Shown: positions 1,653-62,401 of the stretch, piece by piece
Position numbering within the stretch: the first letter of the stretch is position 1
How the letters are laid out: each line of letters starts with the position of its first letter
IMG/VR virus record: IMGVR_UViG_2061766007_000545
Strand: one strand, 5' to 3'
Source: an uncultured virus (IMG/VR IMGVR_UViG_2061766007_000545)
Taxonomy: Duplodnaviria > Heunggongvirae > Uroviricota > Caudoviricetes
DNA: 64,000 nt
Notes under the pieces: model-generated
Told to the model about the DNA's origin: nothing
Databases searched by the model: none
The model's input: only the letters and a program-made list of their open reading frames with translations
Position numbers and translations under genes: made by a program

Positions 1653-2995
1653 CTATAATAATCCTAAACTTCGAGCATTACACTCATAAAAATCATTAAA
1701 TAAAGGATAGTTATTTTCTTTCACAAAAGCAAACACTTCTCTAATTTCATCTTTAGTCATACTTTGACCACCGTAGCGCTTATTTGGTTTTTCATCAGAA
1801 TGACGAGCAAAGTCATAAAGAGTATCATCATTGATTTTTGTTAAATAAGTTTGCGTTGCTACTGTTTGAAAGCTATTATGATAGAAATTAAAGAGTCGTA
1901 TAACTTGTTCCCACATAGGATCTTTAAAATATCCCTTATCATATATAAGTGAAAAATTAAGGTGACAACTTCGCGAAATTATAATCTGCCTATAAATTTT
2001 TGGTAAAATATTTATCACAAAGTCATCTGCCTCGTATCCGTACATGGCTTTATATTCCATCTGCTTGTATGCTGCTCGATCTCGGCATTTTTCATACCAT
2101 TTATAAAATGATTCATCATCAATAAGTCCATTAAATTGTAGGGAAAAGAAAAGACTATCAGTGCGTACAGTTGACCAATTAACTAGGTCTTCTCCTTTAA
2201 AAAGCTGAATTGGAAACTTCATTCCTACGCGGGTTGCCCATCCGTCATTGCGCGCGAGCTTCAGAATTTTTTGAACCTCTTCAAAACTTCCCTCAATTGC
2301 GCCTAGGTCATAATCATGAAAGATTAGGTGGCGCGTATTACGTAGGTTTTTAAATTGCTTACCATACTCTGGCCATATCGTCTTTCCATCTAATGAAAGC
2401 CGACAATGCTCTGCATCTATAAGATTTTTATAGATTGTACTAGTTAAGCTATAAGTTCCNNNNNNNNNNCTCAAAATCTTTAGATAAAACTACTATTTCT
2501 CTCTTTTTTTTATAGTATGAAGAAAGTTTCATAATCTCAAGATTAAAGGGGACTAAGAGATAAGTNNNNNNNNNNCGGCCATATTGTCTTTCCATCTAAT
2601 GAAAGCCGACAGTGTTCTGCATCTATAAGATTTTTATAGATTGTACTAGTTAAGCTATAAGTTCCCGCTTCTTTCATTTGTTTTTCATATCGAGAATAGA
2701 TTGAGGTATCTGGTTTAGATATCTCAATCTCTCTCGGTAGTGGAGTATATATATTATTAGAAAAGGCAAGACCACCATATTCCACATTCTTGGTGGTCAT
2801 TAGCCCTTTCGGAAAAATTTGGTCGATATAATCTTTTCGATATATAAATTTCGTATAATATTCCGGTTCAAAATCTTTGGATAAAACTACTATTTCTCTC
2901 TTTTTTTTGTAATATGAAGAAAGTTTCATAATCTCAAGATTAAAGGGGACTAAGAGATAAGTAGAAAAGTCTCCATCCATTAATCCAATACTCAT
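1653..2995 (-). CDS. Hypothetical protein (~380 aa) broken by two N-gaps; N-terminus resembles phage radical-SAM-associated proteins
   Basis: ORFs 2543-2995 and 1653-2474 share GTYSLTSTIYKNLIDAEHCRLSLDGKTIWP, so they collapse into one gene; starts IGLMDGD..PFNLEIMKLSSYYK. Confidence 0.6.
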
Positions 2996-16956: not shown

Positions 16957-17337
16957 TTACTCCCTTACTGTACTAAAGTCAATATTATTCATAATAAAGT
17001 TTTTGCGAGGTTCAACCGCTTCGCCCATTAAATCATAAAGTAGTGTCATTGCTTCTTCAGAATATTCAAGTACTTCAAGACGCTGATATTGTTCGGTAAA
17101 CATTGAAGCATGTGCAGTTTCTTCGGGTAATTCACCTAAACCTTTCGCACGGGTAACTGTTCCCTTAATATCTTTTCTTACTTTATTAAATTCTTCATCA
17201 GTAAAGTAGTAAGACTCAGTTCCTTTATTATCTACGATATAAAGAGGTGAGCGCAACCAACATAAGCGTCCTTCTTTAATAAACTGAGGCGCGACGCGAT
17301 AAAGCAAAGCCATTATAAGTAAACCTATATGACTACC
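16957..17337 (-). CDS. gyrB: DNA gyrase subunit B, exon 2
   Basis: GSHI...SPLY...RAKGLGE; completes TOPRIM motif DADSD|GSHI. Confidence 0.92.
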   Translation of the reverse strand, partial: GSHIGLLIMALLYRVAPQFIKEGRLCWLRSPLYIVDNKGTESYYFTDEEFNKVRKDIKGTVTRAKGLGELPEETAHASMFTEQYQRLEVLEYSEEAMTLLYDLMGEAVEPRKNFIMNNIDFSTVRE

Positions 17338-18370
17338 CACGTTATTCCATTATTTCTAACGGCGCTGACTATATGTTACTCACAAATGTGAGAATACTCT
17401 TTCCACCTACGTACCAATAGTAAGTGTACTTCCCTTCCGGGGAATAGTCGATACAGGCTTCATTTATTAACCCAAACTTTTTGTTTCTTTTTGTATATTG
17501 GGAGGTCTTTATAGGTGCGGCCCCACAATATTTGTTGTAGTGTATTATAACTACATCTATCTTCAAAATCTTTATAAATGGTTCGTGCATCTTCATTTAC
17601 ATAACGCTCTCGTATTTGAAGAACCTCTTCATTTGAAAATTTCGCGTTATCAGAATTGGCACCATCAGTTGCATGATATTTATAGAAGTTTTTATTTTCT
17701 TCTGTATAAACTTCCATTTTAATATCTTTCCAAGTACTGCCATCCCATATAGAGGCAAAACCATAAAAACTTATTTTATTTTGAAACTTTTGATATACAT
17801 CACGTCGGCGCATATGTGCATCATAACATTCTCTGATGTAAGCTACATCTTCATTTGTTAAATTTGTGCGTCCATTATTTTCACCACGATTATTTCCTCC
17901 GCCTTCACTGCAATTATAACCAAAACCTTTATAAGTGTTATAAAAGGCAACCCAATATTTTTCTCGTTCATCAAGTTGTTCTAATGAACATTCTTCAATG
18001 ACTTGAAAATCAAAGGCGTCGGCGCCATACTTTCTAATAGCAATATCAATCGGTATATCAGTTTTTGTTTTATGTTCGGAAAATCTTCGTTCAATATTAT
18101 TACTTTGTCCGATATATGATTTTCCATTTTCTTTTTTTGTTATTTTATATATGCCTATCATCGCGGCACCTCCACAATTTTAGGCTTGGGTTAATTCTGA
18201 TTCCCACGGGATCTGCATGCCCACAAGGGGTTTAGCTTTTCTTACCACCATAACCTTCCGGTTTAGTTGCCCGTTAGCCTTCTAAATATAGTAGAATATG
18301 TAAACCATCACTACATTATTTTGAAGACCCCGCTGGTTAGCGGTAAAGTATTTACAGACAGTTTTTATTT
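17338..18370 (-). mobile_element. Group I intron in gyrB
   Basis: Exon 1 ends in U (CAGAU) and pairs with internal guide GUCUG including a U-G wobble; P7 pair GACUA/UAGUC (17445-17449, 17367-17371) in R- and S-like contexts; terminal G at 17338; removal restores frame. Confidence 0.9.
17460..18161 (-). CDS. Intron-encoded GIY-YIG homing endonuclease
   Basis: MIGIYKIT...SYIGQS..R...H, GYN motif; lies inside the intron. Confidence 0.92.
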   Translation of the reverse strand: MIGIYKITKKENGKSYIGQSNNIERRFSEHKTKTDIPIDIAIRKYGADAFDFQVIEECSLEQLDEREKYWVAFYNTYKGFGYNCSEGGGNNRGENNGRTNLTNEDVAYIRECYDAHMRRRDVYQKFQNKISFYGFASIWDGSTWKDIKMEVYTEENKNFYKYHATDGANSDNAKFSNEEVLQIRERYVNEDARTIYKDFEDRCSYNTLQQILWGRTYKDLPIYKKKQKVWVNK

Positions 18371-19867
18371 ATCTGAATCTGCATCGGTACAGATAGCCAC
18401 TTTTCCATAACGAAGCTTTTTACCATCGTATTTGTCTGGTACAATATTCATCGCACTAAGGAAAAGTTTTACCTCTTCGTTTTGAAAGGTTTTTTCATCA
18501 GGGTTAGATAGCGCATTAATAATTTTACCACGAATTGCAAGCAATCCATACTTCTTATAATCTCTCGCCTGCGCCATTCCTCCAAGAGCGGAATCTCCCT
18601 CTACGATAAGTAGAATTGAATCCTGTCCAAGAAATTCTGCGTCTTTAAGTTTATCAGAAGCAAAAACCTTTTTCTTTTGATTCTTTTCTACTTCTTTTGA
18701 AGCATTCATTATCTGTTCGCGCGCTTTAGCGGCCGCTGCATCAGCTTTAATCTCTTTCTCAAAAGTCTTTAGAATATTTTCAAATTCATTAGGGTATTTT
18801 TTCGTAAATTCCTCGAACATTTTCGTAGTTAAACGCTGACACAACCCGCGCAATTCAGGATTCGTAATCTTACTTTTTGTCTGTCCATCATAAATTGGAT
18901 CCTTAAGGTTTACCGAGCAAATATATTCAAGTCCTCTACGAAGAACATCCGCATCATATTCTCCCTTTGCTTTTACTTGCTTCTTTAGAAAGTTTGTGAT
19001 AGAAGTCTTAATGCCCGTAATTGGTGTGCCACCGTTTGGATTTTCTCCACCATTTGAGAAGAGATAAAAGTTTTCTTTACCAGATGCCGTCCACTGCATT
19101 ATAATCTCTACATCAATATCATTTTCCGAAGCTTTAATATAAAGAGGATGAGCATGGATAGGTTTACTAATTTTTTCTTTTGCAAAGTCGCGCAAACCTT
19201 CTTTACTCATATATTTATTTACTTTTTTCGTATTAGCATCAGTTACGATAAAAGTAATACCGGGATTAAAGTAGGAATATTCCTTCATCAACTCGCAGAT
19301 TTCATCGTAATCAAAGTTAATCGGTTCTGATTTAAAGACTTCCTGAGAGGGCTTATAGATTATATATGTACCCTGCGCCTGACCGTTAAGAGGCTTTTTC
19401 TGACACTCTGTCCATTTCGGTATACCTTTTTCAAACTCCATATACCATTCGGCGCCATCACGATAACTCGAAATCTTAAACCAATCAGAAGAACAGCAAG
19501 TTGCGGCTGAACCAGTACCATTAAGTCCACGGCTCTTTCCACCATACGCGTTATCATTAAATTTTGCACCGGAATGATTTTCAGTAAGAAGGTTAATCAT
19601 TACTTCTTTTGAAAAGCTATTCTGTCCGTGTGGCATTCCACGACCATAGTCACGACAACTTGCCCAATCTTTTCCAACTACTATTTCTATTTTTGTAGCA
19701 TCTTTACAAACCAAACCCTCATCAGTTGCATTATTGACTAACTCAAGAAGTCCAGCAATAACACCGGTATGGTCTGCACTACCCAAATAGATACCAATAC
19801 GAGAGCGTACGCCTTCTCGGAAAGTCAACTGTTGAACCGATGAGGCATCATAAATTTCTTGTGCCAT
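18371..19867 (-). CDS. gyrB: DNA gyrase subunit B, exon 1
   Basis: GHKL ATPase ELVNNATDE, DYGRGMP, GLNGTG; VEGDSA, IRGKIIN, TDADSD then stop. Confidence 0.93.
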
Positions 19868-21836: not shown

Positions 21837-22493
21837 TTATTGTCTTTGAGGTCCTTTTTCATATTTTCTCTTCCAAATATAATGATATGCAGTTTTCATT
21901 TCACCTCTACAACAGGACCTAATATTAGATGAACTCCATCCATTAATTCTTCCCGCCTCTGAAGCAGAACTATATTCTCTTATAAAGTTCCCATCTAAAT
22001 CAAATTGTAGAACTGGATCTGCATTTTTCTTTTTACTAAATTCACTAACCCTTTTGGCAATATCTTCATCGGTTATTAAGCCAGCACCTTTAAGTCTATT
22101 TAATACTAAATTTGTGCGCCCTATTCCCATTTTTCTTTCTATTTCTTTTCCTGTATATCCTTCTTGCCAAAGAGCGTACATGGTTTCGATATCATATTTT
22201 ATCATTCCTTCTCCGCCTAAACTTACATTATATCCATTTTCTTCAGTAAGACTTTTATATTTTTGTATATAGCAAATTTCTTTTTCATTTATCAGTTCTG
22301 AGGGAATATTATTCTCTATTACTTCTATAGAAAAGTTTTCCAATCCATATTTTCGCATAGCTAAATATAGTGGATAATTTACAGTATAAATATGGCGTTT
22401 ATGCTCTTCCCACCTTTCTTGGAGAGACCGCTCAGTTTTTCCTACATATTTTTTATTATTAATTTTATTGGTTATTAAGTAAATTAATCCCAT
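21837..22493 (-). CDS. Free-standing GIY-YIG homing endonuclease with NUMOD1-like C-terminus
   Basis: LIYLITN..KYVGKT, GYN, VLQFDLDGNFIREYSSASEA..IRSCCRG. Confidence 0.88.
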   Translation of the reverse strand: MGLIYLITNKINNKKYVGKTERSLQERWEEHKRHIYTVNYPLYLAMRKYGLENFSIEVIENNIPSELINEKEICYIQKYKSLTEENGYNVSLGGEGMIKYDIETMYALWQEGYTGKEIERKMGIGRTNLVLNRLKGAGLITDEDIAKRVSEFSKKKNADPVLQFDLDGNFIREYSSASEAGRINGWSSSNIRSCCRGEMKTAYHYIWKRKYEKGPQRQ

Positions 22494-22498
22494 AATTA

Positions 22499-23521
22499 CT
22501 ACCCCTGTCTTTCGTTAAGTCCGTATTCTTTCGAGCCGTAGAAGTTAATCCAATATTTTTCTCTTTCTCCAAGTTTATCCTTTGGTACTTCTTCAAGCAC
22601 TTCAAAGGTAAATTGGTCAACTCCATCTTTTTCCATAGTAGTATGGAGCATTGAATGAGCGATAGTGCCAACACCAAATGCGGTTTTAATGTGCTGTCCC
22701 CATCTATCACGAATATTAGTTGATTTACCGACATAGATTTCTTTAGTTTTAAGTCGAGTTATCTTATAGATACCAGATGGTGCAGAACCATTAAGTACAC
22801 GCTTAATCATTTCTTGCGCGGGTTTTGCTATGTAAGTATCATAGATAATCTTATCAAGAAAAGAACGATTAGAAAGACGAGGCGCAATAGAACGTAGGAC
22901 TTCAATATCTTGTTTAGCAGTATCACTAAGGCAAACTCGATAGAAGTCTTGTTTTTCTTCGATAGCGCGCTGACGAAGTATTTCTTGGTTGATGACTTCG
23001 CGCTTCTCTTTAAAGTCATTAATTATGAAGTCTAATTCAGTAATTTCTATCCGCTTCTTCTGTGCAAGTTCCTCGTTAGTGGCGAGGTACCCTTCGAGTT
23101 CTTTCCGTGCGTCTTCTTTTATTGATTCGAGAAGACGAGCAGTAGTATTACGGTAGTCATTTACTTCGTTGTCGAAATGACGATGGATTTCTTCATTATT
23201 TTTCTCCGTAGAAGTTCTTACGTATTCTGCGCCCGCTCGCTCCTGCGCGTCTCGCATCCGCTGGAATTCCTCAGTGGACTTCTTAGCATCATCTCGCGCA
23301 GAAGTAAGCCGCGCGCCTTGTGCATAGACCTCTGCTTCCAAATCCGAAATTTTCTTCTGTGCTTCCGCATCTAATTCAGCAAAACGACTTTCTAATTCTA
23401 TTCTATATTTATCTACTATTTTATCTCTAAGTTTATTTTCTTCTTTTTTTAATTTACTTCTATATACTATATCTATTATTAATATTACTATTATAATACT
23501 ACTTATAATATATATATACAT
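22499..23521 (-). CDS. Membrane-anchored coiled-coil protein with C-terminal GIY-YIG domain
   Basis: Hydrophobic N-terminus, charged helical middle, SGIYKIT..IYVGKS..RW..H..EREKYWI. Confidence 0.8.
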   Translation of the reverse strand: MYIYIISSIIIVILIIDIVYRSKLKKEENKLRDKIVDKYRIELESRFAELDAEAQKKISDLEAEVYAQGARLTSARDDAKKSTEEFQRMRDAQERAGAEYVRTSTEKNNEEIHRHFDNEVNDYRNTTARLLESIKEDARKELEGYLATNEELAQKKRIEITELDFIINDFKEKREVINQEILRQRAIEEKQDFYRVCLSDTAKQDIEVLRSIAPRLSNRSFLDKIIYDTYIAKPAQEMIKRVLNGSAPSGIYKITRLKTKEIYVGKSTNIRDRWGQHIKTAFGVGTIAHSMLHTTMEKDGVDQFTFEVLEEVPKDKLGEREKYWINFYGSKEYGLNERQG

Positions 23522-23548
23522 AAAATTTACCTCCCGTTTTATAAGTAG

Positions 23549-23577
23549 ATTATACCACAAAACGAGAGGTAAGTCAA
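23549..23577 (-). promoter_or_regulatory. Sigma-A-type promoter
   Basis: TTGACT-17-TATAAT. Confidence 0.78.
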
Positions 23578-54048: not shown

Positions 54049-54532
54049 AAGAAATTACTATAAATATCCCGAAAGAAGTAATTGTGGCGGATACGCCCTT
54101 GGATTGGAAGAATGGTATAAACCTTATATTGGTTCTGATGTATTTAGAGAGCGCGCCATCAAACAACGATTGCGTGAGGGTAAAACGATAGAAGAAATAG
54201 AAAAAGAAATTTTGGAGCAAGACACCAAATTTATCCTACAAGATTTCGGTCGCGCGCTGAGTACGACCGAAAATCCACATACAATACCAAATTCCAAAAA
54301 AGTTATTGCTTATCGAATTTGCGTGGATGAAAATTTTGAAGGGATTTATACAGATTACCACTTTAAAGTACGAACCAATGGAGTTTGGTCACACAAACAA
54401 GGTTCAATGAAACCGGAAGAATGCGAGTTAGATGAAGATAAACCTTGGGGATTACTTGAGAATGATGATGAAACCATTCTTCATTATTACGATAGTCCGA
54501 TTGTGTATTTCGTGGTAGAAGAAGAAATTTGA
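54035..54532 (+). CDS. Hypothetical protein with papain-like Cys/His motif
   Basis: NCGGYALG...DYHF...G.WSHK.G. Confidence 0.6.
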   Translation: MTTSKRNYYKYPERSNCGGYALGLEEWYKPYIGSDVFRERAIKQRLREGKTIEEIEKEILEQDTKFILQDFGRALSTTENPHTIPNSKKVIAYRICVDENFEGIYTDYHFKVRTNGVWSHKQGSMKPEECELDEDKPWGLLENDDETILHYYDSPIVYFVVEEEI

Positions 54533-54557
54533 AATTTTTCTGAATTTTTTATATAAT
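54529..54557 (+). promoter_or_regulatory. Sigma-A-type promoter (tRNA array 1)
   Basis: TTGAAA-17-TATAAT. Confidence 0.75.
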
Positions 54558-54877: not shown

Positions 54878-54879
54878 AT

Positions 54880-54950
54880 TACGGGTTGGTGTAAGGGCAG
54901 CATTGTAGATTCTGACTCTACCGATAATGGTTCAATTCCATTACCCGTAG
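54880..54950 (+). tRNA. tRNA-Gln(CTG)
   Basis: Cloverleaf; GTAGA-TT-CTG-AC-TCTAC. Confidence 0.85.
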
Positions 54951-54953
54951 TCT

Positions 54954-55026
54954 TGGGGCGTAGCCAAGTTGGTAAGGCACGGGGTTTTGATCCCCGGATG
55001 CGTAGGTTCGAGTCCTACCGCCCTAG
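54954..55026 (+). tRNA. tRNA-Gln(TTG)
   Basis: CGGGG-TT-TTG-AT-CCCCG, GTTCGAGTC. Confidence 0.92.
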
Positions 55027-55030
55027 CTTT

Positions 55031-55102
55031 GTCTGTATGGTCTAATGGATATGACATCTGCCCTCCAAGCAGAAGATGTGGGTTCAATTCCCACTATGGA
55101 CT
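55031..55102 (+). tRNA. tRNA-Gly(TCC)
   Basis: TCTGC-CC-TCC-AA-GCAGA (C33). Confidence 0.85.
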
Positions 55103-55106
55103 TTTT

Positions 55107-55179
55107 GTCGAGTTCGTCTAGTTGGAAAGGATAGGAGACTCTCAATCTCCAGACACGAGTTCAAATCTCGTACTCGGTA
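55107..55179 (+). tRNA. tRNA-Glu(CTC)
   Basis: GGAGA-CT-CTC-AA-TCTCC. Confidence 0.88.
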
Positions 55180-55187
55180 TTCAGTTT

Positions 55188-55270
55188 GCGCGCGTGGCGG
55201 AATTGGCAGACGCAGGGGACTTAAAATCCCCTTCCCTTTGGGAGTGTGGGTTCGAGTCCCACCGTGCGCA
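55188..55270 (+). tRNA. tRNA-Leu(TAA)
   Basis: GGGGA-CT-TAA-AA-TCCCC, long variable arm. Confidence 0.93.
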
Positions 55271-55537
55271 GTTGCCACAAAGCTAGTGGCATAGGCGGTG
55301 TAGCTAATCGCTTTAAAACCTACCTCAAACAAATAAACAAAATGAGGGTACTTTCGAGAGAAAGAGAAAAGGTAATAGAATTCATAGGTAGACAACTGTA
55401 CGATAGTTTAAAAGATGAGCATAAGAAAACATGCCTATGCAGAAGTAAGGCTGCTTGGACGCAGAAAGGCTTCAAATTTTATTAGGTAAGATAGGAAATA
55501 AGTATAGCGCTGTATTTATTTCTGACTTTTGCCTTAG

Positions 55538-55608
55538 GCCGATATGGTCTAGTGGTACGATTTCTCCTTGCCAAGGAGAGGACGTGGGTTCGATCCCCAC
55601 TATCGGCT
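55538..55608 (+). tRNA. tRNA-Gly(GCC)
   Basis: TCTCC-TT-GCC-AA-GGAGA. Confidence 0.92.
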
Positions 55609-55612
55609 TTAT

Positions 55613-55686
55613 GGGGCCGTGGCGCAATTGGCGAGCGCAGGTGCTTTGCAAGCACAAGGTTGAGGGTTCAACTCCCTTCGGCTCCA
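55613..55686 (+). tRNA. tRNA-Ala(TGC)
   Basis: GTGC-TT-TGC-AA-GCAC, G3-U70 pair. Confidence 0.92.
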
Positions 55687-55692
55687 TTTTAT

Positions 55693-55776
55693 CCGCAGAT
55701 AACCCGTAATTGGCAGCGGTCCTGACTGTAAATCAGGTGTCTTCGGATTCTGGTGGTTCAAGTCCATCTCTGCGGA
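55693..55776 (+). tRNA. tRNA-Tyr(GTA)
   Basis: CCTGA-CT-GTA-AA-TCAGG, long variable arm, C1-G72. Confidence 0.88.
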
Positions 55777-55796
55777 TTTTATTGAAAGGAGAAATC

Positions 55797-56108
55797 ATGA
55801 TAATAGGAAAACTTATTCGTCCTCAAACTTGTGACATGGGTTCTAATTATGTAGAATATGAAATGACAGAAGATATGACTTTAGACCAAGTTCTTGAATG
55901 GATTAAAGAAAATAATATTTGTGCATTTGGAACCATTACTATTAGTTTTAGAGATGGAGACATTCTTCGTAAGTTTGATTATGATTTATTTCACAAAAAT
56001 GAAAGGTCTTTTTATTATAATTTTGGTTGGGAAGGCAAAAAGATTGTAAATAAAATGACTTCTCAAGCTTGTTTTATGTATTGCGATTTTGAGATTCAAT
56101 TAAGATAA
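55797..56108 (+). CDS. Hypothetical protein within tRNA array
   Basis: AAAGGAG RBS, ATG 55797. Confidence 0.65.
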   Translation: MIIGKLIRPQTCDMGSNYVEYEMTEDMTLDQVLEWIKENNICAFGTITISFRDGDILRKFDYDLFHKNERSFYYNFGWEGKKIVNKMTSQACFMYCDFEIQLR

Positions 56109-56112
56109 AGTT

Positions 56113-56186
56113 TGGGGCGTAGCTCAGTCGGTTAGAGCAGTACTCTTATAAAGTAAAGGTCAAGGGTTCAATTCCCTTCGCCCCGA
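56113..56186 (+). tRNA. tRNA-Ile(TAT)
   Basis: TACT-CT-TAT-AA-AGTA, canonical D and T arms. Confidence 0.85.
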
Positions 56187-56303
56187 TTTGTGCGGTGTGT
56201 ACGAGCTTCGCGCCGTATGCGTTGTACAGTATAATAAAAAGGTGGTAAATTTTATGAAGAAACGATTTACTATGGATAAAGTAGAAGATTATGACTTTAT
56301 CCA

Positions 56304-56376
56304 GCCTCGGTAGCTCAACTGGTAGAGCGCAGGCTTGAAGGACCTGGCGTAGTTGGTTCAACTCCAACCCGAGGCA
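56304..56376 (+). tRNA. tRNA-Phe(GAA)
   Basis: CAGGC-TT-GAA-GG-ACCTG. Confidence 0.87.
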
Positions 56377-56468
56377 CTCATGGGTTTGTTGGTTTCCCAA
56401 ATTACACCAAATGAGGCGGGCATAGCGCCAAGAGCGAAAATGGAGTCAAATCTACTATGCGTAAACGC

Positions 56469-56542
56469 GGGCGATTGATGCAACTGGCAGACATACTCGA
56501 TTCAAAATCGAGGTTTTATGGGTTCGATTCCCTTATTGCCCA
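56469..56542 (+). tRNA. tRNA-Leu(CAA), short variable loop
   Basis: CTCGA-TT-CAA-AA-TCGAG. Confidence 0.85.
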
Positions 56543-56551
56543 TTATACTAT

Positions 56552-56624
56552 GCTCGCATAGCTCAGCTGGGAGAGCGCGTGGTCTACACCCACGAGGTCG
56601 GGAGTTCGATCCTCTCTGTGAGTA
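56552..56624 (+). tRNA. tRNA-Val(TAC)
   Basis: CGTGG-TC-TAC-AC-CCACG (C33). Confidence 0.87.
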
Positions 56625-56628
56625 CTTT

Positions 56629-56702
56629 GTTCCGTTAGGCTAATGGAAAAAGACTAAGCGACTTCTAATCGTTTGATATAGGTTCGAATCCTATACGGAA
56701 CA
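56629..56702 (+). tRNA. tRNA-Arg(TCT)
   Basis: AGCGA-CT-TCT-AA-TCGTT. Confidence 0.88.
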
Positions 56703-56719
56703 TCGAAGGGAGAAAAGAA

Positions 56720-57289
56720 ATGTATAAAGGTTTATATGATAAATTTAAAGATTGGTTTCATAATGATAGAGGTAATGTATGGTTTTATTCCGATCCTCAC
56801 TTTAGTGATGAAGAAATGATTTATTTGCGCGCTAACTATATTGGCGATTTAGAGCAAGTAAAACGAATTAACTCTAAAGTAGGTAAATATGATACGATTA
56901 TCTTTCTTGGTGATATTGGAAACCCTGAATACATTTCTAATATTCGTGGATATAAAGTACTTATAAAAGGAAACCACGATAGCGGAAATGCAAATTATGA
57001 AAAGTACTTTGATGAAATTTACGAAGGCGCGCTTTGTGTGTCAGAAAAAATTATACTCAGTCACGAACCAATTTACTTTCCTTTTGCCCTAAATATTCAT
57101 GGACATGACCATTCTAATTGGGAATTCCAAGACGAAATGCATTGGAATGTTTGTGCAGAGTATATTAACTATACTCCTATTAGTTTAAATGATATAATTA
57201 AGTCTGGTAGGTTAAAGAAAATTGATAGTATCCATAGAGTTACGATAGATAAAGCCACGGAAAGAAAGGGAGAGAAAAATGGTGTATAA
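56720..57289 (+). CDS. Calcineurin-like metallophosphoesterase
   Basis: SDPHF, LGDI, KGNHD, LSHEP, HGHDH. Confidence 0.9.
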   Translation: MYKGLYDKFKDWFHNDRGNVWFYSDPHFSDEEMIYLRANYIGDLEQVKRINSKVGKYDTIIFLGDIGNPEYISNIRGYKVLIKGNHDSGNANYEKYFDEIYEGALCVSEKIILSHEPIYFPFALNIHGHDHSNWEFQDEMHWNVCAEYINYTPISLNDIIKSGRLKKIDSIHRVTIDKATERKGEKNGV

Positions 57290-57467
57290 ATTAATATTAG
57301 ATGAAAAAGATATTAGTAAAATTCTATCACAGGTTTTTGTAACAGATGGCGGTAAGCTTGAAGCTTTTTGGAAGGTATATGACGAAGCTGGCATAATGGG
57401 TGATGAGACAAGACTTGAGATTACCTTAACGTCTAGTTCTCCTATTACTCCAATAGAAGATTTTTGA
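57279..57467 (+). CDS. Small hypothetical protein
   Basis: 62 aa, overlaps upstream stop, GGAG RBS. Confidence 0.55.
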   Translation: MVYKLILDEKDISKILSQVFVTDGGKLEAFWKVYDEAGIMGDETRLEITLTSSSPITPIEDF

Positions 57468-57492
57468 TTTTTCTTAAAATTTTTGATATAAT
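57464..57492 (+). promoter_or_regulatory. Sigma-A-type promoter (ncRNA/tRNA array 2)
   Basis: TTGATT-17-TATAAT. Confidence 0.8.
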
Positions 57493-57651
57493 ATATATAG
57501 AAAAGTTGAGAGAGAAATAAAAAAGTTTATAAAAGTTATAGCCTCTGTGACAATTTAGGGTGCTTACGCTATAACTTCTTAAGCGCAAACCTCAAGTTAT
57601 GCCTAATCTGCTGCTATCGCGCTATATAAACTGAGCAGGAAAAGGCAATTC

Positions 57652-57724
57652 GGTTCTATAGTTTAGTTGGTTAAAATACGGCGCTGTCAACGCCGAGTCA
57701 TGGGTTCAATCCCCATTGGAACCG
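57652..57724 (+). tRNA. tRNA-Asp(GTC)
   Basis: CGGCG-CT-GTC-AA-CGCCG. Confidence 0.92.
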
Positions 57725-57951
57725 CGCCCATAGTGGATAGACGGGTTCAGAGATGCCTTAAGGTGTAACTCTATAAAAATACCTTTATTGCAAGGATAAC
57801 TAGTGCCACCTAGGAAACCTTAGCCGGAGTCAAAACAGGGTTTTTCTCCTTATTAATTCAAGGGCGTACGACGCTGAGAGTGAATTAAGTTAAAGGAGGT
57901 TTTCTGATGGCAGCGACTTACGACAACAAAAACAGGCAGAGAAAACTTTTG

Positions 57952-58025
57952 GGGGGTTTAGCTCAGTTGGTTAGAGCGCTTGACTGTTAATCAAGATGTC
58001 CTAGGTTCGAGTCCTAGAATCCCCG
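57952..58025 (+). tRNA. tRNA-Asn(GTT)
   Basis: CTTGA-CT-GTT-AA-TCAAG. Confidence 0.93.
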
Positions 58026-58086
58026 TTGAACAAAAACCTCCTAAAGGTTTTTACTAGTAATGTGCTTGCACTACCCTAGGTTTTTT

Positions 58087-58281
58087 GTGAAGGTTGGCGG
58101 AGTATGTAGGTGTACGCAGTATAAATTCATAGTAATTGGATTCTAAAAAGAATTGGGCGCCACGTGGGTGGCTCGGAGAAAGTTAGGACTTCTCTCAATC
58201 AACTCTACGGGACTATGATACCTCTCTATAATGAATACCCGAACCAAGAGGGAGTCGATTAACTCCAACTCTTGCCTTCAC
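58087..58281 (+). ncRNA. Candidate ~195-nt structured ncRNA (unclassified)
   Basis: Ends pair (GTGAAGGT/GCCTTCAC), internal TCATAGT/ACTATGA and GAGAAAGT/ACTTCTC; no ORF. Confidence 0.45.
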
Positions 58282-58284
58282 TAT

Positions 58285-58356
58285 GCACCCATCGTCGAAT
58301 AGGCAAGACTACTGACTTGTAATCAGTGTATGGCGGTTCGAGTCCGTCTGGGTGCT
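58285..58356 (+). tRNA. tRNA-Thr(TGT)
   Basis: ACTGA-CT-TGT-AA-TCAGT. Confidence 0.9.
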
Positions 58357-58359
58357 CTC

Positions 58360-59165
58360 CCACCACTCGATACTAGTAGGAAAACCGAAGCTTTATTTCG
58401 AGTTAATGTGACTCTAGTGGAATCTTAGGAAAGTCGAGGAACTCGAGGGATATACCCTCCAAGAAGGGTTGAGCCTTCAGCACAGGGGTTTAAGGTCGAA
58501 GTGACAATAGTCATATGGTAAGAACCAGGCATGTAAATGTGCGTTAGTGCGAAAAACCTTAAAGAACCTAACACGCCTCTCAACGATGCGGACCACGTTA
58601 GGTCTGGGAATACTGAAAAACGAGAGCAGTGAGCACACACAGGAATCTCACGCCGTACTAGTCTCCGGTACACGACTATGAGGTGGTAATAGTCCCTCGT
58701 CACGATGTGTAGGTATTCCCGTAATTTGTCGCCTTCGTCTAATTGGCTAGGACAGCGCCCTTTCACGGCGCAAACGTGGGTTCAAACCCCATAGGCGGTA
58801 TATTGGGTAGAAAGATAAACTACCCCTCCCTTCCGAGGGAAAAGGTCCCTGACATCTTTAAGAGTCGACACTTGAAAGGTGCATACCAAACTTCTTATAA
58901 TGGGCAAGCGATAGTCCCATATCGTTAACGCTTCTAACACGGAAGTAAAAATAGGTAGTTGCTCGTAAGGCAAGCTTCGACAGAAAGGCTGACATGAGGA
59001 CTCCGCGGATGTCGTGCCGCGGTATAGAAATGGTTGGACAGTTCTACTAGGGATGACAACTAAAGTAGCAGTATGGAGCATTCTATGTAATGCGGTTGAA
59101 ATGCTGAAGTAGTTTGCGGTGGTTTTGGGGCGACATTTATCCACTTGTCAAAAAGAAAGAGCGTT
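58360..59165 (+). ncRNA. Large ornate ncRNA candidate (one ~800-nt GOLLD-like RNA with embedded tRNA-Glu, or two ~360-nt RNAs)
   Basis: GC-richer, no credible CDS, more than 15 hairpins plus several loop-loop complementarities; family assignment unverified. Confidence 0.6.
58728..58800 (+). tRNA. tRNA-Glu(TTC)
   Basis: GCGCC-CT-TTC-AC-GGCGC. Confidence 0.92.
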
Positions 59166-59170
59166 CATCA

Positions 59171-59244
59171 CGAGGGATACGTCAATTGGCTAGACGGCGT
59201 GCGTTGGATGCACGAGGTTGCGGGTTCGAATCCTGCTCCTTCGA
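59171..59244 (+). tRNA. tRNA-Pro(TGG)
   Basis: CGTGC-GT-TGG-AT-GCACG. Confidence 0.9.
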
Positions 59245-59253
59245 CTCGAAAAT

Positions 59254-59282
59254 TTGAAAATTTTCGGAATTTTTGGTATACT
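59254..59282 (+). promoter_or_regulatory. Sigma-A-type promoter (tRNA array 3)
   Basis: TTGAAA-17-TATACT. Confidence 0.75.
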
Positions 59283-59306
59283 ATATTTACAAAAGTTAAG
59301 AAATAT

Positions 59307-59377
59307 CGCGCTGTGATGTAATGGAAGCATACTAGCCTCATACACTAGAAATACGGGTTCAAGTCCCGTTGGCGCAA
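59307..59377 (+). tRNA. tRNA-Met(CAT), initiator-like
   Basis: CTAGC-CT-CAT-AC-ACTAG, C1:A72 mismatch. Confidence 0.83.
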
Positions 59378-59424
59378 GTCCATTATCTATAGGTGGCGCT
59401 GAATACATAAGAAAGGAAAAAGAA

Positions 59425-59781
59425 ATGGGATATTATACTGATTATTCACTTAAGGTTTATAATGAGAAAGGTCAGTTAATCGATTCAGAAGATAAGGAAT
59501 TCGAAGAAGTACGTAGAGTCTTTTCTGAAAAGGTTGAATGGATAGATTCTGATGACCTTAATGCTCTTAATACTGAACACGGAGTTAATTGGAAGTGGTA
59601 TTCTGCGCGAAGAGATATTGAAGAAATCGCAAAAGAACTTCCTTCTTATTACTTTATTCTCGAAGGACAGGGAGAAGAGAATGGAGATTGGTGGACTCTT
59701 GCTCTTCATGGAACACAAATTTATGAAGACGAAGTAGTTGCACCCGCAAATCATTTTGATGATTTTTGGGTTGCTTATTAA
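59425..59781 (+). CDS. Acidic hypothetical protein
   Basis: MGYYTDYSL...KWY...L.G.GEE..D.W; AAAGGA RBS. Confidence 0.7.
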   Translation: MGYYTDYSLKVYNEKGQLIDSEDKEFEEVRRVFSEKVEWIDSDDLNALNTEHGVNWKWYSARRDIEEIAKELPSYYFILEGQGEENGDWWTLALHGTQIYEDEVVAPANHFDDFWVAY

Positions 59782-59858
59782 GTCCTCGTACGCCAATAGG
59801 AACCAGACGGCTTGACTACGAATCAACGCAGATGTGGGTTCGAATCCCTCCGAGGACA
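59782..59858 (+). tRNA. tRNA-Arg(ACG)
   Basis: TTGA-CT-ACG-AA-TCAA. Confidence 0.85.
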
Positions 59859-59861
59859 TAT

Positions 59862-59947
59862 GCCGCAGTACCTTAGTGGGGAGGAGGGACGGTCTTGAAA
59901 ACCGTTGACCTTCACGGGTCTGTTAGGTTCGAATCCTACCTGCGGCG
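59862..59947 (+). tRNA. tRNA-Ser(TGA)
   Basis: ACGGT-CT-TGA-AA-ACCGT, long variable arm. Confidence 0.9.
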
Positions 59948-59951
59948 CTCT

Positions 59952-60040
59952 GTTTGGGTGGCAGAGTCTGGTCGAATGCGGTGGATTGCTAATCCATTGA
60001 ACATTAAATTGTTCCGAAGGTTCGAATCCTTTCCCAAACG
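59952..60040 (+). tRNA. tRNA-Ser(GCT)
   Basis: GTGGA-TT-GCT-AA-TCCAT, long variable arm. Confidence 0.9.
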
Positions 60041-60112
60041 TTTAAACTAATTTAAAGGAGAACTATGATGAAGCGAAAACATATTCACAAATTAAAATCG
60101 AAGAAAATTTAC

Positions 60113-60184
60113 GCGTCCGTGGCAGACAAGTAATGCACACGACTTTTAATCGTGGATATGTGGGGGCAGTACCCATCGGGCGCA
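60113..60184 (+). tRNA. tRNA-Lys(TTT), non-canonical T-loop
   Basis: CACGA-CT-TTT-AA-TCGTG; T-arm GTGGG-GGCAGTA-CCCAT. Confidence 0.8.
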
Positions 60185-60188
60185 CTAT

Positions 60189-60262
60189 ACCGATGTAGTT
60201 TAACTGGCAAAATAGCTGACTCTTAATCAGTAAGACTGTGGGTTCAACTCCCACCATCGGTA
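60189..60262 (+). tRNA. tRNA-Lys(CTT)
   Basis: GCTGA-CT-CTT-AA-TCAGT. Confidence 0.9.
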
Positions 60263-60264
60263 CT

Positions 60265-60336
60265 GTGGGAGTGGCAGATAGGTAATGCGCTAGATTGTGG
60301 CTCTAGTTTATGCGGGTTCAAATCCCGTCTCTCACC
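60265..60336 (+). tRNA. tRNA-His(GTG)
   Basis: CTAGA-TT-GTG-GC-TCTAG, C73. Confidence 0.9.
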
Positions 60337-60339
60337 TAT

Positions 60340-60414
60340 ACGAGCATAACTCAGTAGGTAGAGTGTCCGTCTGATACGCGGGAAGTCGGTTGGGTTCAAA
60401 TCCCCCTGCTCGTA
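60340..60414 (+). tRNA. tRNA-Ile(GAT)
   Basis: TCCGT-CT-GAT-AC-GCGGG. Confidence 0.85.
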
Positions 60415-60426
60415 CTTACCGAAAAT

Positions 60427-60455
60427 TTGATTTTTTCTTAAATTTTTGGTATAAT
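60427..60455 (+). promoter_or_regulatory. Sigma-A-type promoter (ROOL-like RNA)
   Basis: TTGATT-17-TATAAT. Confidence 0.8.
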
Positions 60456-60480
60456 ATATGTATAGAAAATAAGAAAAGAA

Positions 60481-61085
60481 CTTTGAAAACTTTATAAAAA
60501 GCGTGTTGCAACCTTGTGAAGAGCGTCTAACCAACGCTGCAAGGGCGCCTCGGAACAGCTGAGGAGTCGTCAGAAGGATACTTCAAAACGGCTCAACTTT
60601 CACAGAAATCGAAAGACGAAGTGAGAAGGAGTAAAACTCCAACAGAGAAGAGGTGGCGCAAGGGCAATATGATTATAAGACACGATTCCGGTTTTCCCAA
60701 CAATAGACGCCTCGGTGAGGAATAACCCTATAGACCACATCCGCAAGATGTGAGCCAATGTAGGGAATGCAAAAGCAATGGGAATGCCTCGACACTACGT
60801 CAGAAATGGCGTAGAACCGGTTTGCGGTACGAGTAGCCTAAGAGGCGTAATATTTCTAAAATAGTTGACATTAATTATTGGGCAAATGTTATTAATCTGA
60901 ATGGTTGGTGAAAGTTAGGGGTACATGAATCCCCTTCGAGACAGTGGTTCCGAAAGGAACTGGGGTAAGAAGTTATACGGCGACGGCTGTATGGCTCAGA
61001 CTTATCTCCTCGGTGGTCGAATAATAAAGGTTATTGAGGGAGTATAGCGAAGGCTAGCAATATACTTTTTATAAAGTTTTTAAAG
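60481..61085 (+). ncRNA. Large structured ncRNA, probable ROOL RNA
   Basis: ~605 nt with no CDS, 29-nt terminal complementary arms, many short-loop hairpins, own sigma-A promoter, tRNA neighbourhood; family assigned from recalled size/context/motifs, not from a search. Confidence 0.72.
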
Positions 61086-61147
61086 AAAAGAAAAGGAGTT
61101 AAGTTATGATGAGACGATGGTGTATGGAGCAGCACATTAAGTAATAT

Positions 61148-61218
61148 GCGGCTCTAGTGTAATGGTAACATGGCGGTCTCCAAAACCGCAGATTAGGGTT
61201 CAACTCCCTAGAGTCGTG
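61148..61218 (+). tRNA. tRNA-Trp(CCA)
   Basis: GCGGT-CT-CCA-AA-ACCGC. Confidence 0.92.
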
Positions 61219-61222
61219 CTTC

Positions 61223-61296
61223 GGCATTGTACTCAAGTGGATTAAGAGGCGGGGCTGCAACCTCCGTAGTCGTTGGTTCGAATCCAACCAATGCCT
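61223..61296 (+). tRNA. tRNA-Cys(GCA)
   Basis: CGGGG-CT-GCA-AC-CTCCG, U73. Confidence 0.92.
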
Positions 61297-61310
61297 CTTT
61301 AATAATATAT

Positions 61311-61383
61311 GCCCCGATAGTCGAACGGCATAGACGCTTGTCTTAGGAACAAGTATTTGGGGGTTCAAATCCCTCTCGGGGTA
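61311..61383 (+). tRNA. tRNA-Leu(TAG), short variable loop
   Basis: CTTGT-CT-TAG-GA-ACAAG. Confidence 0.85.
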
Positions 61384-61550
61384 CGCCGCGGTAACAAAGG
61401 TATATACCTAGGGGTAAAGAGAATAGAGATAGTATGGGACGCTCGAGGGACTAACCTCGTTCTGCGCTTTGCCAGAGAATTTAAAGTGCGCAACCCATGC
61501 CCCGGCGTTTTTGTAGTGGCGCTCGAAGTAATACACTACGATAGAAGGTT

Positions 61551-61617
61551 AGTCTTATGGTCTAATTGGACAAGGACGCGCAAAAGCGAGGTAGGGGTTC
61601 GATTCCCTTTAAGACAA
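61551..61617 (+). ncRNA. tRNA-like RNA lacking a normal anticodon arm
   Basis: Acceptor GTCTTA/TAAGAC, D arm, T arm AGGGG-TTCGATT-CCCTT; anticodon arm reduced to CGC-AAAA-GCG. Confidence 0.75.
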
Positions 61618-61643: not shown

Positions 61644-61979
61644 ATGCCGTTTTCATTTACTACTACAAATTTACTAGATGATATCTTTCTTTCTGCTGAT
61701 TGTAGACTTGTTGTTCGATCTCAATCTCGTGTTGAACGATTTAAAAATCTTGTAAAGGTTGTGTTTAAGAATAAGGATAAAAGAATTTTTGGAGTAAAGC
61801 TTTCTAATGGCGAAGTAATTACTGTTAAGTGTGCCGAGAATGATACTTGGGATGAAGAGAAGGCATTGCTTGCATGCTTCGCAAAGTGGGAAGCCGGTAA
61901 TAATGGTACATTCAATAAGCTCTTTAGCTTACTTGATAATGTAGTAGATACTTCGAAAGGACAAAAGAAAAATGACTAA
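61644..61979 (+). CDS. Hypothetical protein
   Basis: GGAGG RBS; V.C...D.WDEEKA motif. Confidence 0.65.
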   Translation: MPFSFTTTNLLDDIFLSADCRLVVRSQSRVERFKNLVKVVFKNKDKRIFGVKLSNGEVITVKCAENDTWDEEKALLACFAKWEAGNNGTFNKLFSLLDNVVDTSKGQKKND

Positions 61980-62106
61980 TAAAGATAAATATAATCTGAT
62001 GTTCGCGCGCTATGTAACTTTGAGCGAAAAGCCGAAAAACATTAAGTCAGGTGGAGTACTACGGAAGCTGCGCCGTAAGCTGCGCGCAATGAAAAAAGAC
62101 AATTAA
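61972..62106 (+). CDS. Small basic protein (44 aa)
   Basis: MTNKDKYNLMFARY...KNIKSGGVLRKLRRKLRAMKKDN; overlaps upstream stop; below ORF-track cutoff. Confidence 0.55.
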   Translation: MTNKDKYNLMFARYVTLSEKPKNIKSGGVLRKLRRKLRAMKKDN

Positions 62107-62139
62107 CTAATTTTTGTTTCCTGTTTTTCTTTTCTTATC

Positions 62140-62173
62140 GGGGTTACTCGATAGAGTAACCCCACCTCTTTTT
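62140..62173 (+). terminator. Probable terminator hairpin
   Basis: GGGGTTACTC-GATA-GAGTAACCCC. Confidence 0.6.
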
Positions 62174-62191: not shown

Positions 62192-62401
62192 ATGTATAAA
62201 ATGACAAAAGTAAACTCAAGTGCGATTGCAGAAATTGGTTATGATAAAGATACGGGTACTTTGAAAATTACTTTTAATAGTGGTTTAGAGTATGAATATC
62301 CAAACTTTGAAGAAGCGCAATATAAAGAATTTCTTCATGCGCCTTCAATAGGAAAATATTATAATAAGAATATACGCTCAAGCTTCTCAATAAAAAGATA
62401 G
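62192..62401 (+). CDS. KTSC domain protein
   Basis: VNSSAIAEIGYD...L.I.F.SG..Y.Y...APSIGKYYN..IR. Confidence 0.9.
   Translation: MYKMTKVNSSAIAEIGYDKDTGTLKITFNSGLEYEYPNFEEAQYKEFLHAPSIGKYYNKNIRSSFSIKR

Follow-up and report, generated by a model that had tools for sequence, protein, structure and literature searches.

A phage tRNA island with an orphan abiF-type hairpin, a new structured RNA and a ROOL RNA: possible delivery of an AbiF antitoxin mimic

Introduction

The tRNA cluster of phage T4 yields stable small RNAs in addition to tRNAs. A different RNA, the abiF-motif RNA, is the antidote of AbiF (Abi_2), a widespread HEPN ribonuclease of abortive infection that acts in type III-like toxin-antitoxin systems and is the proposed ancestor of Cas13. 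Here we analyze a tRNA island at positions 54880-61617 of a stretch of DNA of 64,000 nucleotides, referred to as the window, from an uncultured virus of the Caudoviricetes (IMG/VR record IMGVR_UViG_2061766007_000545). The island combines a complete tRNA set with three identifiable RNA elements: an orphan hairpin of the abiF family (RF03085), a conserved structured RNA of about 195 nt, and a full-length ROOL RNA (RF03087). We propose that tRNA-punctuated operons of this type may free RNA cargo, including a mimic of the AbiF antitoxin, and assign a probability of roughly 0.55 to this reading.

Several described systems are close to parts of this locus; statements on them are drawn from the openly accessible parts of the sources cited. 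The abiF-motif RNA RCd22 of C. difficile consists of two motifs, binds AbiF directly and neutralizes it in trans (bioRxiv 10.1101/2025.04.15.648962). The AbiF-RNA complex has been solved, and the descent of Cas13 from AbiF is described in a review (PMC12737573). A cyanophage paper lists an abiF small RNA, without interpretation in its accessible part (PMC9964418). ROOL was first found in cow rumen and is described from phage and prophage sequences, frequently in the vicinity of tRNA islands (PMC5737381; bioRxiv 10.1101/2024.12.08.627333). It assembles into RNA-only cages of unknown function, one such nanocage having been resolved by cryo-EM (bioRxiv 10.1101/2024.12.08.627333). Full-text searches of the open literature turned up neither an account of orphan abiF RNAs of phages in a counter-defence role nor any phage counter-measure against AbiF. 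ROOL near phage tRNA islands is thus already known; new here are the 195-nt RNA family and the orphan abiF hairpin.

Results

The abiF-type hairpin of the window

The hairpin and the spacer that bears it are:
58567-58603, + strand: orphan abiF-motif hairpin in spacer 7 (RF03085, 34.7 bits, E 1e-4 within the spacer)
58358-58726, + strand: spacer 7, 369 nt (fold z-score +0.44 against shuffles; RNA-library contig over 58457-58671)

The loop block GCCUCUCAACGAUGC is identical to the abiF consensus over 15 nt and is accompanied by stems of 3 bp and 6 bp, in which 9 of 9 pairs are standard; the stems consist of other letters than the consensus stems and are still complementary. The same architecture is found in L196, an uncultured Lachnobacterium metagenome-assembled genome (MAG), and in L235, a Lachnospiraceae MAG, whose hairpins lie directly before Abi_2 open reading frames (ORFs; E 1.6e-51 and 1e-30, respectively). 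The window hairpin shares 41 of 43 nt with both, and the difference amounts to one C-G to U-A pair. A string identical to that of L196 and L235 occurs in L145, which is nevertheless not reported at gathering level; the gathering cut-off therefore misses true members of this abiF subtype. The 53 bits obtained for the window copy with model R1 are circular, as this copy was part of the model. In L145 itself (269-469, a viral contig), the hairpin is followed by a stub ORF of about 38 aa, counted from the second ATG, whose start resembles AbiF N-termini by eye; the locus may be a truncated AbiF.

The window hairpin is not located directly upstream of an Abi_2 gene; instead, a tRNA-Glu follows 123 nt downstream, and none of the 55 window ORFs scanned encodes Abi_2. 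We therefore consider it an orphan copy. No Rfam family besides abiF was found in the spacers at E values up to 1-10, and a search of the spacers for tandem antitoxin-like repeats found none.

abiF hairpins in viral and bacterial sequences

Orphan abiF hairpins are common in viral contigs. The viral set results from an exact 15-mer scan of viral contigs (at least 117 stretches), and the invariance of its loop is therefore given by construction; all viral counts hold among the matches listed. At least five of the six outer pairs form in 91 of 117 stretches, and across 79 distinct hairpins, including the one of the window, the stems covary with a score of 0.438, compared to 0.161 in shuffles (0 of 500 reach the observed value). 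The bacterial set was drawn from species-representative bacterial and archaeal genomes and comprises 81 hairpins in 80 loci with flanks, 35 of them well formed in a fixed register. For both sets, a Pfam scan was applied to the first downstream ORF with 120 aa or more that began within 500 nt. Abi_2 follows a well-formed hairpin in 2 of 64 viral cases among the matches listed, versus 16 of 35 bacterial cases (Fisher p 3e-7), and a hairpin in shifted register in 0 of 16 viral versus 8 of 46 bacterial cases. The association with tRNAs is reversed: a tRNA on the same strand is found no more than 30 nt away in 13 of 80 viral loci (gaps of 3-8 nt; among the matches listed) and no more than 300 nt away in 21 of these 80, versus 0 of 81 in the bacterial set at either distance.

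Rfam reports abiF at gathering level in 14 of 20 submitted loci, including 12 tRNA-flanked orphans and both AbiF-linked controls, and PADLOC, applied to 28 downstream ORFs, calls AbiD only for the two AbiF-linked controls. Among five whole viral records that bear the hairpin, three of which are 100% complete according to CheckV, none encodes Abi_2. A diverged copy with two changes in the loop is present in 18 phage records of the Bacillus subtilis group. For example, in phiNIT1 (L168) it is located at 2501-2539 within a non-coding gap of 1.2 kb (2337-3574; tRNA region, 44% G+C), for which Rfam calls a skipping-rope RNA (RF02924, 46.8 bits) immediately before tRNA-Gln, not the diverged abiF hairpin; the gap beyond these two elements is an unexplained remainder.

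Two side observations concern the surroundings of viral abiF hairpins. In L078, a Metallophos_2 protein of 407 aa is encoded directly 3' of the hairpin. The phage tRNA arrays L001, L086, L097, L103 and L126 contain tRNAs with a CTA anticodon (annotated as Pyl by ARAGORN, i.e. amber suppressors), in four of these loci 185-405 nt upstream of an abiF hairpin.

A conserved RNA of about 195 nt

58087-58281, + strand: new conserved structured RNA with five helices (nhmmer, pattern scans, alignment A6)

A scan of viral contigs with a conserved 16-mer of ROOL yielded 69 loci. When each spacer of the island was compared with these loci by nhmmer, only 58026-58284 matched (3 of 69 loci). Its conserved blocks served as the basis of two pattern scans, which returned 7 and 8 loci and, with the window included, gave 8 distinct sequences. 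RNAalifold predicts five helices, with double compensatory changes in 15 of 26 pairs (alignment A6). Paired cells amount to 90.9%, compared to 72.6% in shuffles. The covariation score is 0.571, compared to 0.194 in shuffles (0 of 500 reach it) and 0.06-0.23 in controls with slid partners, a test that is somewhat favoured by the structure having been derived from the same alignment. In one helix, 5 of 5 pairs covary with 100% pairing. The closing helix ends 3 nt before tRNA-Thr, and 7 of the 8 members share the strand of the tRNAs in their own locus, at distances of 13-530 nt; the exception, L301/L361, has no tRNA within its flanks. As Rfam 15 has no match, the element 58087-58281 represents a conserved RNA family absent from that release, a well-supported addition to the phage RNAs that accompany ROOL and whose role is unknown. 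We note that the z-score of its minimum free energy (MFE) is only -0.8; a poor z-score therefore does not exclude a function of the other spacers.

ROOL RNA

60488-61075, + strand: ROOL RNA, full length (RF03087, 292.4 bits, model positions 1-574 of 574)

With 292.4 bits against a gathering score of 99.1, and an MFE far better than that of shuffles (z -6.17), the element 60488-61075 is, by its sequence, an additional member of the known ROOL family in its known setting: tRNA-Ile is located 72 nt upstream, tRNA-Trp 72 nt downstream, and phage genes surround the island. RNA-library contigs match it at 60575-61042 (1 mismatch), 60528-60691 and 60892-61042 (0 mismatches each), all derived from two RNA libraries of one study. 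Depth is 75-79 for the ROOL contigs and 3.5-6.2 for other pieces of the island; these are per-contig values and cannot rank expression. More generally, the RNA-library data are assembled contigs that show presence, not ends, processing or rank, and island parts without contig cover in the RNA runs carry no information. A search for ROOL in five abiF-bearing phage records gave 0 of 5, but the control genomes likewise gave none.

tRNAs, promoters and possible co-transcription

The tRNA genes of the island and its candidate promoters are:
54529-54557, + strand: promoter P1 (TTGAAA-17-TATAAT; sigma-70-type match and box)
54879-55271, + strand: tRNAs Gln(ctg), Gln(ttg), Gly(tcc), Glu(ctc), Leu(taa), spaced by 1-6 nt (ARAGORN)
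55537-55777, + strand: tRNAs Gly(gcc), Ala(tgc), Tyr(gta) (ARAGORN)
56112-56187, + strand: tRNA-Ile(tat) (ARAGORN)
56304-56704, + strand: tRNAs Phe(gaa), Leu(caa), Val(tac), Arg(tct) (ARAGORN)
57464-57492, + strand: promoter P2 (extended -10; sigma-70-type match and box)
57652-58025, + strand: tRNA-Asp(gtc), spacer 5, tRNA-Asn(gtt) (ARAGORN)
58285-58357, + strand: tRNA-Thr(tgt) (ARAGORN)
58727-59245, + strand: tRNA-Glu(ttc), spacer 8, tRNA-Pro(tgg) (ARAGORN)
59254-59282, + strand: promoter P3 (sigma-70-type match and box)
within 59306-60415, + strand: tRNA-Met(cat), 118-aa ORF, tRNAs Arg(acg), Ser(tga), Ser(gct) (ARAGORN)
within 59306-60415, + strand: Lys(UUU)-like tRNA at 60113-60184, then Lys(ctt), His(gtg), Ile(gat) (Rfam, ARAGORN)
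60427-60455, + strand: promoter P4, just before ROOL (sigma-70-type match and box)
61148-61384, + strand: tRNAs Trp(cca), Cys(gca), Leu(tag) (ARAGORN)
61385-61617, + strand: 166-nt spacer, then tRNA-like element at 61551-61617 (Rfam, fold)

ARAGORN detects 28 tRNAs between 54879 and 61384, all on the + strand, to which the Rfam tRNA model adds 60113-60184 (43.4 bits) and 61551-61617 (37.6 bits). The former is a cloverleaf with the anticodon loop CUUUUAA (Lys, UUU) and a non-standard T-loop, GGCAGUA; the latter has acceptor and T arms, and its anticodon arm is only a stub. The island thus holds 29 tRNAs and one tRNA-like element, covers 20 of 20 amino acids, and in 0 of the 30 elements is the discriminator base followed by CCA. 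A box of 49 nt occurs four times (54528, 57463, 59253 and 60426), its copies being 67-80% alike, and each box holds a sigma-70-type match of 10-11 out of 12 positions. A plain consensus promoter scan is weak, with 34 sites compared to 20.6 +/- 4.2 in shuffles. The only strong terminator-like hairpin is located at 62140-62163. Co-transcription of the island appears plausible from this arrangement, because all elements share one strand, four promoter boxes are present and 62140 is the sole strong terminator-like site. The first-pass annotation, made from the DNA letters and a list of ORFs, had listed 29 tRNAs for all amino acids without encoded CCA, a tRNA mimic, four promoter-driven blocks, a metallophosphoesterase, and a basic peptide followed by a KTSC gene, all of which are recovered here (the proteins are described below).

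The promoter box (57452-57527, 59247-59303, 60422-60497) also recurs often in five phage records (G006-G010), where its copies are 73-94% alike. Judged by these matches, it looks like a promoter type shared within a single group of phages, one in which ROOL is present too.

Remaining spacers and turnover of the island

The remaining spacers comprise:
55272-55536, + strand: spacer 1, non-coding, stable fold (z -3.8; RNA-library contig over 55383-55535)
56188-56313, + strand: spacer 2, with a 17-bp hairpin, a Shine-Dalgarno site and a 19-aa mini-ORF at 56254-56313 (z -4.3)
56378-56468, + strand: 91-nt spacer (z +0.31)
57493-57651, + strand: spacer 4 (no fold signal; about 36 nt, 57542-57577, 84% alike in L015)
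57726-57951, + strand: spacer 5 (z -0.12, no homologues)
58802-59170, + strand: spacer 8, 369 nt (z -0.10, no homologues)

Homologues were sought in 14 + 36 loci encoding relatives of the metallophosphoesterase (MPE), in the 69 ROOL loci and in five whole related records. The closest relative found is L015, whose MPE protein is 96% identical and whose flanks, spacers and tRNA order are different. A cassette of tRNA-Arg(tct) and the MPE gene (window 56628-57289; L015:1237-1877) is 90% identical over 645 nt within otherwise different contexts. The hairpin of spacer 2 recurs in L015 (271-386) with 17 of 17 pairs kept, despite two double and four single changes; its mini-ORF (MKKRFTMDKVE...), which in the window overlaps the first 10 nt of tRNA-Phe, is also present there with an in-frame indel of 3 nt. 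A near-identical MPE next to other spacers and another tRNA order therefore characterizes the island as a fast-shuffling mosaic of cassettes. More distant MPE relatives, with at most 53% identity (L001-L014, L016-L050), have no spacer in common with the window. Spacer 1 has no homologues in the MPE loci, the 69 ROOL loci or the five whole related records, nor does spacer 7 outside the abiF hairpin in the sets searched; the 57542-57577 motif gave 0 matches in a pattern scan of viral contigs, 61385-61550 shows neither a fold signal nor a full-length homologue, and the island spacers are not paralogous to each other.

These results narrow the list of RNAs that the first-pass annotation had put forward. 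Of its two large non-coding RNAs, one is ROOL and the second is without support. Of its at least four smaller structured segments, 58087-58281 and 56188-56303 are borne out, 55272-55536 by its fold only, and the others are unsupported; in particular, the 369-nt spacers 58358-58726 and 58802-59170 fold like shuffles (z +0.44 and -0.10), and full-length homologues were found for neither. As a side observation, one of the MPE-related rumen phage contigs (L005:7741-7828) carries a hepatitis delta virus-like ribozyme (CPEB3 model, 40.3 bits, gathering score 35) between tRNA-Asp and tRNA-Glu.

Proteins and small ORFs

Protein-coding features within and directly after the island are:
55797-56108, + strand: 103-aa ORF, no family (profile scans)
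56720-57289, + strand: MPE (PF00149, 24.6 bits; phrog_547, 8e-26)
59425-59781, + strand: 118-aa ORF (PHROG match, phrog_6306)
61644-62163, + strand: 111-aa ORF, 44-aa basic ORF (61972-62106) and terminator-like hairpin (62140-62163)
62192-62401, + strand: KTSC-domain protein (1e-20)

The only solved relative of the MPE is an uncharacterized Aquifex protein; a role of the MPE in healing the ends of cut tRNAs would be speculation. Neighbours of the island also include a ClpP-like protease and PhoH. Scans anchored on the ClpP-like and the 118-aa proteins found no relatives, and the minus-strand ORFs of 113 and 120 aa within the 369-nt spacers belong to no PHROG family. Three tiny ORFs (57907-57990, 60065-60133 and 61106-61144, encoding 27, 22 and 12 aa, respectively) are located behind strong AGGAGG-type ribosome sites and stop at or enter the next tRNA, namely Asn, the Lys(UUU)-like element and Trp. 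They could be micro-proteins or due to chance.

Phage and sample setting

Genes outside the island code for a PolIII alpha subunit, DnaB, gyrase, UvrD, ligase, RNase H and tail proteins; the window is therefore part of a large phage. We read the source as a large phage of the cattle rumen, probably lytic, with Bacillota-type hosts. Public runs that contain the stretch are labelled as bovine gut or animal gut metagenome, runs with small word shares being left aside for the habitat, and contigs from two additional studies match portions of the island with about 94-97% identity. Comparison of the island with 50,697 phage records by megablast and blastn matched tRNAs only. Gyrase B appears to be split on the minus strand: an ORF for a GIY-YIG endonuclease (17460-18161) separates its N-terminal portion (18365-19867) from its C-terminal portion (16957-17340); two more GIY-YIG ORFs are found nearby (21837-23560).

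Discussion

In the reading that we favour, four phage promoters would drive same-strand units in which tRNAs without encoded CCA alternate with small ORFs and RNA cargo, three pieces of which can be identified: ROOL, the five-helix RNA of about 195 nt and the abiF-type hairpin. Host RNase P and RNase Z would excise the tRNAs and so free the intervening RNAs. The freed abiF-type RNA would hold a host AbiF toxin inactive during infection, acting as an antitoxin mimic, and the complete tRNA set would sustain translation when host tRNAs are depleted or cleaved, both to the benefit of the phage. That tRNAs act as processing punctuation had already been suggested in the first-pass annotation. Two positions fit this suggestion: that of the 195-nt RNA, whose helix ends 3 nt from tRNA-Thr, and that of the abiF hairpins which, in 13 of 80 viral loci (among the matches listed), are separated from a tRNA by 3-8 nt. 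Of the accompanying guess, an RNA-based takeover of translation or an anti-defence system, the latter gains specific support from the orphan hairpin of antitoxin type, and the several large non-coding RNAs it invoked shrink to ROOL.

A number of observations weigh against this reading. The window hairpin scores 34.7 bits, below the RF03085 gathering score of 37. Its distance is 209 nt to the preceding and 123 nt to the following tRNA, where 13 other phage loci have it flush; 8 of these 13 (among the matches listed) represent a single layout, with the hairpin just before tRNA-Arg(tct), and are not independent, being probably one phage clade. The copy is devoid of the U-rich tail found at bona fide AbiF loci, and a search with model R1, filters off, finds one copy only in the window, where RCd22 has two. 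The viral sample as a whole rests on the exact 15-mer scan with its at least 117 stretches, the window is part of a phage genome and the Abi_2 scan covers 55 ORFs within it, and the RNA evidence consists of contigs in which no 5' or 3' ends are seen. A mimic also presumes an AbiF-bearing host. Finally, the fold of five spacers does not exceed that of shuffles in stability (z -0.1 to -0.9, and +0.44; ROOL has z -6.2), four of these five are without full-length homologue in the sets searched, and the spacers of L015 differ, as turnover-prone filler would.

The last points lead to an alternative that we consider unlikely but worth weighing: the spacers may be mostly debris of a recombination-prone tRNA region, the abiF hairpin being a dead relic of an exchange with a host AbiF locus, such that only the tRNAs, ROOL and the 195-nt RNA are functional. 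The entirely different flanks and spacers next to the 96% identical MPE of L015 would be expected under this alternative, as would the missing fold signal of 57493-57651, 57726-57951, 58358-58726 and 58802-59170 and the absence of homologues in the 69 ROOL loci and five related whole records; and the hairpin of L145 with its 38-aa stub ORF has the expected look of a capture relic. A dead relic is, however, at odds with the two differences from the Lachnospiraceae hairpin, which fall on both sides of one pair and keep the pairing, and with orphan hairpins in many phage lineages at a fixed distance of 3-8 nt from a tRNA and with covarying stems (among the matches listed). Likewise, the four spacers between 57726 and 59170 have a G+C content of 42-47%, compared to about 37% for the window.

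The hairpin may also be functional without being a decoy, serving as a signal for processing, stability or attenuation of the tRNA operon, or as a binding site of a phage protein. Such a role would suit the 13 of 80 viral loci (among the matches listed) in which it directly adjoins the 5' or 3' end of a tRNA, many copies are followed by a terminator-like U-run, and RCd22 itself also acts in cis via premature termination in C. difficile (bioRxiv 10.1101/2025.04.15.648962). The window copy, however, is located mid-spacer and has no U-run, the copies before tRNA-Arg(tct) likewise have none, and a loop identical to that of AbiF-linked copies of unrelated bacteria suggests the same protein partner; we regard such a role as improbable. 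That the hairpin instead serves as antitoxin to an AbiF carried by the phage itself, with a gene beyond the 64-kb window, for superinfection exclusion or addiction and not for counter-defence, is very improbable: prophages do carry AbiF systems (bioRxiv 10.1101/2025.04.15.648962), Abi_2 is downstream of 2 of 64 viral hairpins (L082 and L100; among the matches listed) and the window is smaller than the whole genome, but at all AbiF-linked loci seen the toxin starts within about 500 nt downstream, where the window has a tRNA, and Abi_2 is found in 0 of 5 whole hairpin-bearing viral records and 0 of the 55 window ORFs scanned.

Were the reading of tRNA-punctuated operons with an AbiF antitoxin mimic true, part of the puzzling non-tRNA content of phage tRNA islands would obtain a concrete function, and a second route would link tRNA arrays to the evasion of defence. 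Cultured test systems are available, namely the Bacillus phages phiNIT1 and SBSphiJ5-7 and the cyanophage S-CREM1. A broader and more tentative generalization, which we hold to be possible rather than probable, is that phage tRNA operons are delivery platforms for RNA-only counter-defence, combining AbiF mimics with replacement tRNAs in rumen, Bacillus and cyanobacterial phages. In that case, the 195-nt RNA could likewise belong to the toolkit, perhaps together with ROOL.

The comparison with known systems places the individual parts of the island as follows. The window ROOL resembles known ROOL (RF03087) in its origin from cow rumen, in a phage and beside tRNAs; the copy has its own predicted promoter, no essential difference is apparent, and it may likewise assemble into a cage. 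GOLLD RNA has nested or adjacent tRNAs, and the island likewise co-locates non-tRNA RNAs with phage tRNAs, probably with co-processing; unlike GOLLD, the 195-nt RNA has its own fold, and no GOLLD match is found in the island at E up to 1. As to tRNA arrays in counter-defence (eLife 2023, PMC10264068; Nat Commun 2024, PMC11555353), the large tRNA set of the island could similarly replace cut tRNAs; those papers, in their accessible parts, concern tRNAs, and the operons of the window add an antitoxin-type RNA and other non-coding RNAs. The hairpin itself shares with abiF RNA (also AbiFr or RCd22; RF03085) the loop and the two-stem architecture, one compensatory pair away from Abi_2-linked copies of Lachnospiraceae. 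It differs from AbiF-linked abiF RNA in being a single copy without adjacent AbiF and U-rich tail, in a phage tRNA operon. The nearest parallel on the phage side would be the pseudo-ToxI of phage PhiTE (PMC3475682), likewise a phage-borne RNA that resembles an antitoxin, there of type III. As far as its accessible description goes, pseudo-ToxI is a ToxN-related repeat array selected in escape mutants, whereas the window holds a single AbiF-related hairpin, of a kind found in wild phages and tied to tRNAs. In its resemblance to a host antitoxin, the window hairpin is of the kind described for phage antitoxin mimics; by analogy with pseudo-ToxI, it may also bind the toxin and allow escape.

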